Below, piece after piece: positions 24,492 to 25,362 of a DNA stretch of 64,000 bases. The DNA is from a virus. Its lineage: Duplodnaviria; Heunggongvirae; Uroviricota; Caudoviricetes. How positions within the stretch are numbered: the stretch's first letter is position 1; every line of letters starts with the position of its first letter. The stretch lies in the IMG/VR virus record IMGVR_UViG_2724679073_000003; one strand, given 5' to 3'. Position numbers and translations under genes: made by a program. Under the pieces are notes generated by a model, which was not told the origin of the DNA, searched no databases, and saw only the letters and a list, made by a program, of their open reading frames with translations.

Positions 24492-24512
24492 AAAAAAGCC
24501 CCGTTCAGGGGC
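24492..24512 (-). terminator. Terminator downstream of the T5orf172-domain gene
   Basis: GCCCC-GTTCA-GGGGC hairpin followed by T-tract on the minus strand. Confidence 0.6.
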
Positions 24513-24519
24513 ATCAGTG

Positions 24520-25329
24520 TTATTTGCTAAGAGCAGCGAATAATCGTTCGAAATCGATAGTATCTATAGCACGCGTAAGCGCCGGAAGTTCAGCCTCAAA
24601 GTACCCGTGTCGATCGTAAAAGAAGGGACCGAAGAGCGAGGCATGTTGGATTCTACTTCGCCCCAGCCCGGACACACAGTTAAGCCCATTACCGGCTAAA
24701 AGGCTAAAAAACTTCTCTGGATTATCGTGGTAAAGCTGGGAATCAATGGTGGCGGTTAACTCTTCCATAGGGAAGCACACCCGCCCTGTCTCCCAGGGAT
24801 ATTTAGTCCGAAGCATAAACATTGCTTTCAGCAATTCACATTGAGCGCGGATCGCGTCCGGTTCATAGCCAGATATGGAGACATAAGCCACGTCCCTCAT
24901 TCCTGCGTCATCTTTGAAAGTCACGATAGAAGTAACATCCAGCTCTTTTTCGAAAGAGCAAGCAGCATCTACTGGACGCTGAAGTAAATCATTCGACTTG
25001 ATGCGCTCGAGAATCCCTCCCCACATATCATTTAGATATTCGATATGAGCCAAAACCTTATCAAGACACTCTCGTGTAAACCATTCAGTATGCCCGCCAC
25101 CGGCGCTTTTCTCCCACGGCGCATTCCAGGGGAAAAAGGTTGCGTGTAAAGCCCGCTCAAGATTAACCATTGCCAAACGCGTACCACGATAGACCCGTGA
25201 AAGCGCAAAATCGGGACTCACTTGTAGCCCTTTAAACCGTGCCAATGGACCACATGAAATGCCGATTTTAAAAGTATCTCCGTTCTCTGGCACCAGAACG
25301 TAGAGGTAGTGTTGTTTCTCTTCTTGCAT
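24520..25329 (-). CDS. T5orf172 / GIY-YIG-like domain protein with unassigned C-terminal region
   Basis: 269 aa; N-terminus YLYVLVPENGDTFKIGIS...GHTEWF fits the T5orf172 signature; lies between incA iterons and parA. Confidence 0.6.
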   Translation of the reverse strand: MQEEKQHYLYVLVPENGDTFKIGISCGPLARFKGLQVSPDFALSRVYRGTRLAMVNLERALHATFFPWNAPWEKSAGGGHTEWFTRECLDKVLAHIEYLNDMWGGILERIKSNDLLQRPVDAACSFEKELDVTSIVTFKDDAGMRDVAYVSISGYEPDAIRAQCELLKAMFMLRTKYPWETGRVCFPMEELTATIDSQLYHDNPEKFFSLLAGNGLNCVSGLGRSRIQHASLFGPFFYDRHGYFEAELPALTRAIDTIDFERLFAALSK

Positions 25330-25362
25330 ATCAATACCACTGCTTGATGAGAGTCGCGCAAA

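Follow-up and report, generated by a model that had tools for sequence, protein, structure and literature searches.

The 269-aa open reading frame (ORF) that lies between the control iterons and parA in the P1-like phage-plasmid studied here is, with high confidence, a genuine and dispensable gene of a p0111-type replicon cassette, which is swapped as one block via the DnaA/GATC part of oriR and the par promoter. With the same confidence, its product is read as a T5orf172/GIY-YIG nuclease domain with intact catalytic-type residues, joined to a winged helix that evolves fast and is predicted to fold most like the WH1 domain of Rep initiators. The role of the protein is proposed more tentatively: a sequence-directed DNA endonuclease deployed against rival replicons, comparable to homing endonucleases or to Odn of phage ICP1, is our best guess, at somewhat below even confidence. 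Databases and one paper already covered the gene, the swap of the cassette and the annotation as GIY-YIG/T5orf172. What is new is that the slot is conserved in four types of cassette, that the ORF is transferred together with repA, that the C-terminal domain has a Rep-WH1-like predicted fold, and that the ORF is under relaxed selection and has been lost recurrently.

The window, i.e. the whole stretch of 64,000 nucleotides that was analysed, belongs to a P1-like phage-plasmid, a kind of element that commonly carries ESBL and mcr genes and exists with two types of replicon. Positions 24300-25700 are 98.5-100% identical to RCS47, SJ46, JL22 and phi456, and equally to about 390 plasmids of E. coli, Salmonella and Shigella. 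Comparison with P1 (NC_005856) by blastn returned 99.3% identity for 20001-24453 and 96.8% for 26704-30000, with no match in between. The unequal values of the two flanks, 99.3% on the par/capsid side and 96.8% on the upfA side, hint at different recombination histories. The intervening 2250-bp block (24454..26703, minus strand) stands in for the 1491-bp incC-repA-incA block of P1 (61316-62806), which holds the incA iterons, repA and the incC iterons. Its left junction is located 16 bp past the last origin iteron, and the part of oriR beyond it, with five GATC sites and the DnaA box TTATCCACA (26790-26798), is still shared with P1 and forms the left recombination flank (26704..26800, minus strand). 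The right junction is located just upstream of the par promoter, where the promoter/operator region common with P1 forms the right recombination flank (24352..24453, minus strand); both flanks were delimited by blastn and the P1 annotation.

The cassette thus has the architecture of the IncY replicon of P1 and, like it, is bordered by the DnaA/GATC part of oriR and, at the other end, by Ppar-parA-parB; ParA and ParB of the window are 99.7% and 100% identical to those of P1. Conversely, the window RepA is only 42% identical to P1 RepA, the iterons are of the TCGCGTATAGTCAAC type as opposed to the 19-bp GATGTGTGCTGGAGGGAAA type, and P1 has a spacer of 190-213 bp where the window cassette has the ORF and a terminator. 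The repA gene, the iterons and the ORF are instead near-identical to those of RCS47, SJ46 and JL22, the named members of the group; the name p0111 for this replicon type, as well as the replacement of the replication cassette in JL22, were taken from earlier work (PMC9603915). The nomenclature is inconsistent, as the replicon called p0111 in the PlasmidFinder-based literature is typed by MOB-suite in PLSDB as 'IncHI1B' (CP122667.1, NZ_CP126910.1, CP134893.1, NZ_CP062896.1 and NZ_CP117656.1; loci L013-L017).

The original prediction was of a gene inserted into the canonical P1 module, and this part of it has to be abandoned. Since the whole incC-repA-incA block differs from P1, the ORF was not inserted into the P1 replicon but is part of another cassette. 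The prediction was correct in that P1 has no gene at this position, and a search of its incA-parA spacer (~190-213 bp) found neither a gene nor an ORF remnant. This absence would be accounted for if a selfish homing-endonuclease gene had recently entered a P1 replicon, canonical in all other respects, between incA and parA. Such an event would also agree with a difference seen in the IncY lineage, where an IncY-like cassette (L004, described below) has 1017 bp including a T5orf172 ORF where P1 has 213 bp, and where the left junction coincides precisely with the point at which the last incA iteron ends. This is the only presence/absence difference found at the ORF site, and the two sequences compared are just ~72-76% identical at the DNA level. 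For the window such an insertion is very improbable, given that repA and every iteron are likewise different from those of P1 and that no empty-site p0111 replicon was found in ~400 plasmids.

Within the cassette, the elements are arranged in the order origin iterons, Rep3-type repA, control iterons, ORF and terminator. The 15-nt iteron occurs in 12 copies between 25364 and 26687, and in 14 copies in the whole window, compared to 1.5 expected. Five direct origin iterons with 21-22 bp spacing (26588..26687, plus strand) are the counterpart of P1 incC. Two further copies follow directly past the repA stop in the same orientation (25582..25620, plus strand), and four copies inverted with respect to the origin iterons (25364..25502, minus strand) precede the ORF. 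The distance from the nearest of these (25364-25378) to the ATG was measured as 34 nt, in good agreement with the ~35 bp given at the outset. Their designation as incA iterons is adequate for their position, but their sequence is that of another replicon and not of P1 incA; consequently they are incA-like in position only. An additional iteron-like site with one mismatch, TCGCTTATAGTCAAC, is found within the repA coding sequence (25889-25903, plus strand). An inverted repeat, TTGACGC...GCGTCAA (25540-25575, minus strand), is located between two iteron groups shortly past the repA stop; its first arm, TTGACGCTGGTGGATTTT, is kept in the related L003 cassette, and the repeat could act as a weak terminator or bind a protein.

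The repA gene itself (25622..26542, minus strand) encodes a Rep3/RepFIB-like initiator of the p0111 type with matches to Pfam Rep3_C and Rep3_N. In the program-made ORF list it has 306 codons from a TTG, whereas RefSeq records give 294 aa from an ATG at 26506 (MPEESKG...). The orthologous RepA of L003 aligns only from the region of this ATG, and judged from the alignment the shorter start is probably the real one.

The ORF, which begins with an ATG, extends over 24520..25329 on the strand that also encodes repA (minus). Both its existence and its placement between the iteron array and the parA promoter were confirmed. The stop codon (24520-24522) is followed after 7 nt by an intrinsic-terminator-like hairpin, GCCCC-TGAAC-GGGGC with T6 (24492..24512, minus strand), whose 5-bp GC hairpin, GCCCCTGAACGGGGC, spans 24512-24498 (minus strand). 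The presence of a terminator belonging to the ORF was hence borne out; the corresponding RNA fold has a predicted energy of -13.9 kcal/mol (z -1.96), and for the ORF, on the repA strand, it is the sole clear terminator. A comparable hairpin with a T-run is found 3' of the homologous gene in the L005 cassette, and a weaker one in L003. Promoter prediction gave no sigma-70 promoter immediately 5' of the ORF. The product is labelled 'GIY-YIG nuclease family protein' in RefSeq and corresponds to gp57 of JL22; in the GenBank record of phage phi456 (OR339795.1) it is misannotated as 'terminase small subunit'. A literature search returned no paper dealing with the function of the ORF.

The N-terminal domain (aa 1-105; 25015..25329, minus strand) was assigned to T5orf172/GIY-YIG in the original prediction, from the motifs YLYVL, KIGIS and GHTEWF. 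All three are present, and the assignment is upheld by a Pfam match to PF10544 (T5orf172) over aa 8-85 that exceeds the cut-off (27.5 bits, cut-off 20, E 4.7e-6) as well as by the predicted fold. In addition, the product matches phrog_681 'endonuclease' (E 5.5e-9). The conserved residues of T5orf172 proteins are all found, namely the first-strand Tyr, KIG, Arg, Glu and the Glu of 'EWF', and Y10, K21, G23, R31, E58, H62, E82, W83 and F84 are invariant across 19 homologues. In the predicted structure the domain matches the GIY-YIG fold of SLX1, and its matches in BFVD include phage T5orf172 proteins, among them the model of Odn (ICP1 ORF88). A sequence-profile search of the PDB returned one marginal GIY-YIG match only (1ywl, E 0.15). 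Judged from motifs and model, it is probable that the ORF encodes a DNA-cutting enzyme.

The remainder of the protein was originally described as unassigned, and on the level of sequence families it is: searches of Pfam, NCBIfam, PADLOC and PDB sequences with the last ~165 aa were all without a match, as was a Pfam search with the C-terminal halves of all four homologues. An AlphaFold2 model of the protein, calculated from an alignment with 19 homologues, reached a mean pLDDT of 82 (a single-sequence model, pLDDT 37, was not used). In this model aa ~125-269 (24523..24957, minus strand) form a predicted winged helix with the topology alpha-beta-alpha-alpha-beta-beta. The top Foldseek matches were RctB, the WH1 domain of MSBI1.176, RepE54 and pPS10 RepA, with probabilities up to 0.98 and none at E <= 0.001; the matches were attributed to the C-terminal domain by topology and aligned length, because the aligned residues were not reported. 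Two independent structure-comparison methods concur on a Rep-WH1-like domain. The modelled fold of the C-terminal domain thus appears closest to the WH1 of iteron-binding initiators (RepE, pPS10 RepA, RctB). Comparison of the C-terminal domains with five RepA types, ParA and ParB by BLASTP and hhalign revealed no similarity, and a recent chimera with a Rep protein in the style of Odn was rejected on the basis of the comparison with the five RepA types.

The protein family is tiny, with four clades only in 5.8 billion proteins, and in each clade the gene is located between an iteron-bearing repA and parA of a P1-like element. The same slot is thereby filled in three replicon cassettes besides that of the window, with its p0111-type RepA. 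L003 has a RepA 84% identical to that of the window and an ORF that is 44% identical. In the IncY-like L004, RepA is 83% identical to that of P1 and the iterons are of the P1 type, and the ORF resembles that of the window at the N-terminus only (39%). L005 has a third type of RepA, and its ORF is 38% identical to that of L004. Between L003 and L004, ParA is 99.7% and the flanks are 96-98% identical, while repA and the ORFs differ, and the differing block begins at the first origin iteron and ends ~60-80 bp beyond the ORF, the same kind of boundaries as between the window and P1. The ORF accordingly moves with repA, and not with par. Furthermore, in all four cassettes the last inverted control iteron lies 18-34 nt before the ATG. 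As no separate promoter is predicted either, transcription would proceed via read-through from repA or from an iteron-overlapped promoter, and expression of the ORF is probably coupled to RepA.

Scans of IMG/VR, GTDB genomes and JGI metagenomes for further cassette variants returned the window-type gene only, apart from two weak, N-terminal-only matches (L063 and L092). Likewise, tblastn searches with P0010 against plasmids and with P0011 against phages gave the window-type gene and unrelated Vibrio phage endonucleases, and no new cassette variant. A cluster of 168-aa sequences (P0003, 229 members) was considered as a truncated form of the protein and rejected as a contig-start artefact. T5orf172 genes adjoin replication and partition functions also in an unrelated mobile element (L011, 4431-6813), where two T5orf172/MUG113 genes flank an HTH_36 (Rep-like) gene by a ParA-like gene.

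The linkage is equally tight within the p0111 lineage. In PLSDB the ORF is present in 401 records, all at >=90% identity, and this type of RepA in ~398, followed by a gap to <60% identity (RepFIB family), which amounts to a linkage of ~1:1 across ~400 plasmids; L003-type RepA was absent from the same database. In IMG/VR and GTDB, each of the 45 ORF loci (45/45) also carries repA. As no p0111 replicon without the ORF was found among the ~400 PLSDB plasmids or the 45 loci, active homing is not visible in this lineage.

Among 15 syntenic proteins compared between the window and L003 (44-89% identical), the ORF product is the lowest at 44%. The divergence is concentrated in the C-terminal domain (31% identity, compared to 64% for the N-terminal domain), despite 84% identity of RepA and a shared iteron consensus; on these identities no other part of the locus evolves as fast as the C-terminal domain. 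Segregating sites were counted among 45 unselected loci from IMG/VR and GTDB. The ORF displayed 27 synonymous and 33 nonsynonymous sites, as compared to 44 and 4 for repA, and 50 and 1 for parA. Internal stops were found in seven copies of the ORF and in none of repA or parA. The pairwise pN/pS of the ORF is mostly 0.16-0.35, and synonymous diversity of the cassette is similar to that of parA, giving no sign of a recent sweep.

The ORF has been inactivated independently at least six times. The disruptions comprise Q228* in reference phage SJ46 (L038, IMGVR_UViG_2974549561_000001, 4001-4810) and in L081, an S112* allele in five loci, W68*, L93* together with W103*, and a frameshift. Owing to the Q228* allele, the type phage of the group, SJ46, has a truncated ORF. 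In L058 (4295-6057) an IS200/IS605-type insertion, with a TnpB-like ORF of 392 aa and a TnpA-like ORF of 144 aa, is located in the gene, and nt 295-523 of the ORF are deleted. In total ~14% of the copies are disrupted and ~86% intact, and repA and parA are never disrupted. The ORF retains some constraint while being dispensable for plasmid maintenance, with the fastest change in the presumed targeting domain.

If the product is indeed an endonuclease in replicon conflicts, the winged helix would direct the nuclease to a defined site of a competitor, either a P1-like plasmid or some other replicon, and this site would plausibly be within or close to the competitor's replication region. The cut could then have either of two outcomes. 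It may eliminate the rival, in the way that ICP1 Odn attacks the PLE origin, or its repair from the nuclease-carrying plasmid could copy the ORF together with the linked repA cassette into the rival, in the manner of homing-endonuclease co-conversion. A more elaborate variant, which we regard as improbable, is a 'replicon-converting' homing nuclease, one per cassette type. Its WH1-like domain would recognise the iterons of the rival or an adjacent site (e.g. incA/incC of P1 IncY), the GIY-YIG domain would cut, and repair via the shared oriR and par flanks would overwrite the whole replication cassette of the rival. If true, this variant would explain the position of the ORF at the cassette edge and the frequent switching between IncY and p0111, of which 17 events were reported among 193 P1-like elements (PMC11165635). 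The switching is counted in favour of the plain conflict role as well. A position at a module boundary is, on the other hand, equally expected from plain homologous recombination between conserved flanks. Further points against a conflict role are the failure to find a p0111 replicon without the ORF, the lack of a sweep signal in the synonymous diversity, and the fact that, unlike Odn, which is 42% identical to the RepA_N of PLE, the ORF product shows no similarity in sequence comparisons to the five RepA types.

The alternatives were weighed against the same observations. A conflict nuclease fits the evolutionary pattern better than a housekeeping replication factor, which would be an accessory for copy control of its own replicon, where the WH1-like domain binds the cognate iterons or the WH1 of RepA and thereby adjusts initiation or handcuffing; the protein might then be a domesticated nuclease, as CapR is. 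Such a role is quite unlikely in our estimate. It would suit the Rep-WH1-like predicted fold, the invariable inheritance with repA, and the conserved start close behind the last control iteron on the repA strand with the only clear terminator after the ORF. Yet at least six independent knock-outs persist in otherwise intact plasmids, including SJ46, and P1 manages without the gene; the C-terminal domain has diverged to 31% between the window and L003 while RepA and the iteron consensus were retained, and the catalytic-type residues, needless in a pure DNA binder, are invariant. Those same residues, and the same slot in cassettes whose RepA proteins are only ~42% identical, make a decaying relic with no current function hardly credible, as do a pN/pS mostly of 0.16-0.35 and ~86% intact copies, even if ~14% of the copies are disrupted and constraint is relaxed.

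The original prediction left open whether the gene is selfish or defence cargo. The selfish or conflict role is retained here as the best guess, while the defence alternative gained no support from PADLOC (PADLOC-DB v2, 0 families at E <= 1). Anti-phage defence or abortive infection, with the nuclease directed at the DNA of an infecting phage or at the host and the winged helix as a sensor or targeting module, is considered fairly unlikely. The accessory, fast-evolving and repeatedly lost character of the gene would be in line with it, and a remote N-terminal homologue (P0013) adjoins Mrr, WYL and Ymh genes in a defence-like island of a bacterial chromosome, other remote homologues being found on assorted mobile elements. 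Nevertheless, the slot is part of the replicon and not of those regions of P1-like elements that are known to be variable or to hold defence genes, and the strict linkage to repA over four cassette types is unexpected for free cargo. Should the gene turn out to be ordinary cargo, the annotation would still be corrected, with the ORF as a dispensable gene of the p0111 cassette. If, conversely, the nuclease targets rival replicons, it would offer a mechanistic explanation of how replicons are switched and how related plasmids compete.

The proposed conflict endonuclease may be compared with several known systems. SLX1, a structure-specific GIY-YIG nuclease, shares 11-16% sequence identity with the ORF product; it is eukaryotic, acts with the partner SLX4 and carries a RING domain where the ORF product has a winged helix. 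The WH1 domains of RepE (F), pPS10 RepA, RctB and the MSBI1.176 Rep resemble the C-terminal domain with weak scores and no sequence signal, and the second domain of such iteron initiators, WH2, is missing from the ORF product. In ICP1, T5-like and other phages, genes for T5orf172 homing endonucleases adjoin essential genes and lie where exchanged modules begin or end, and 87% of the free-standing enzymes carry CapR, DUF723 or DUF4397 zinc-finger domains (PMC10448857). The ORF product has the same nuclease domain, a position at the edge of an exchanged block, a modular and fast-changing putative DNA-binding part and frequent inactivation in common with them. It differs in having a winged helix and no CxxC motifs, and in that a p0111 cassette allele without the homing-endonuclease gene was not found.

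The closest parallel is Odn (Gp88) of ICP1, which consists of a T5orf172 domain and a DNA-binding domain derived from Rep, and which cleaves origin iterons of a rival (PMC8263062). Both proteins have a T5orf172 nuclease domain, joined in the ORF product to a domain that may, judged by its predicted fold, be of the initiator kind as well, and a role in conflict over a replicon is proposed for the latter. The order of the domains is reversed, and the RepA_N domain of Odn is 42% identical to the RepA of its target, whereas the ORF product is WH1-like by predicted fold only. Moreover, Odn is encoded by a lytic phage and directed against a satellite, while the ORF is situated inside the plasmid's own replicon cassette. 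If the proposed role is true, the principle of Odn, an initiator-like domain guiding a nuclease, would be extended from phage-satellite to plasmid-plasmid conflicts.
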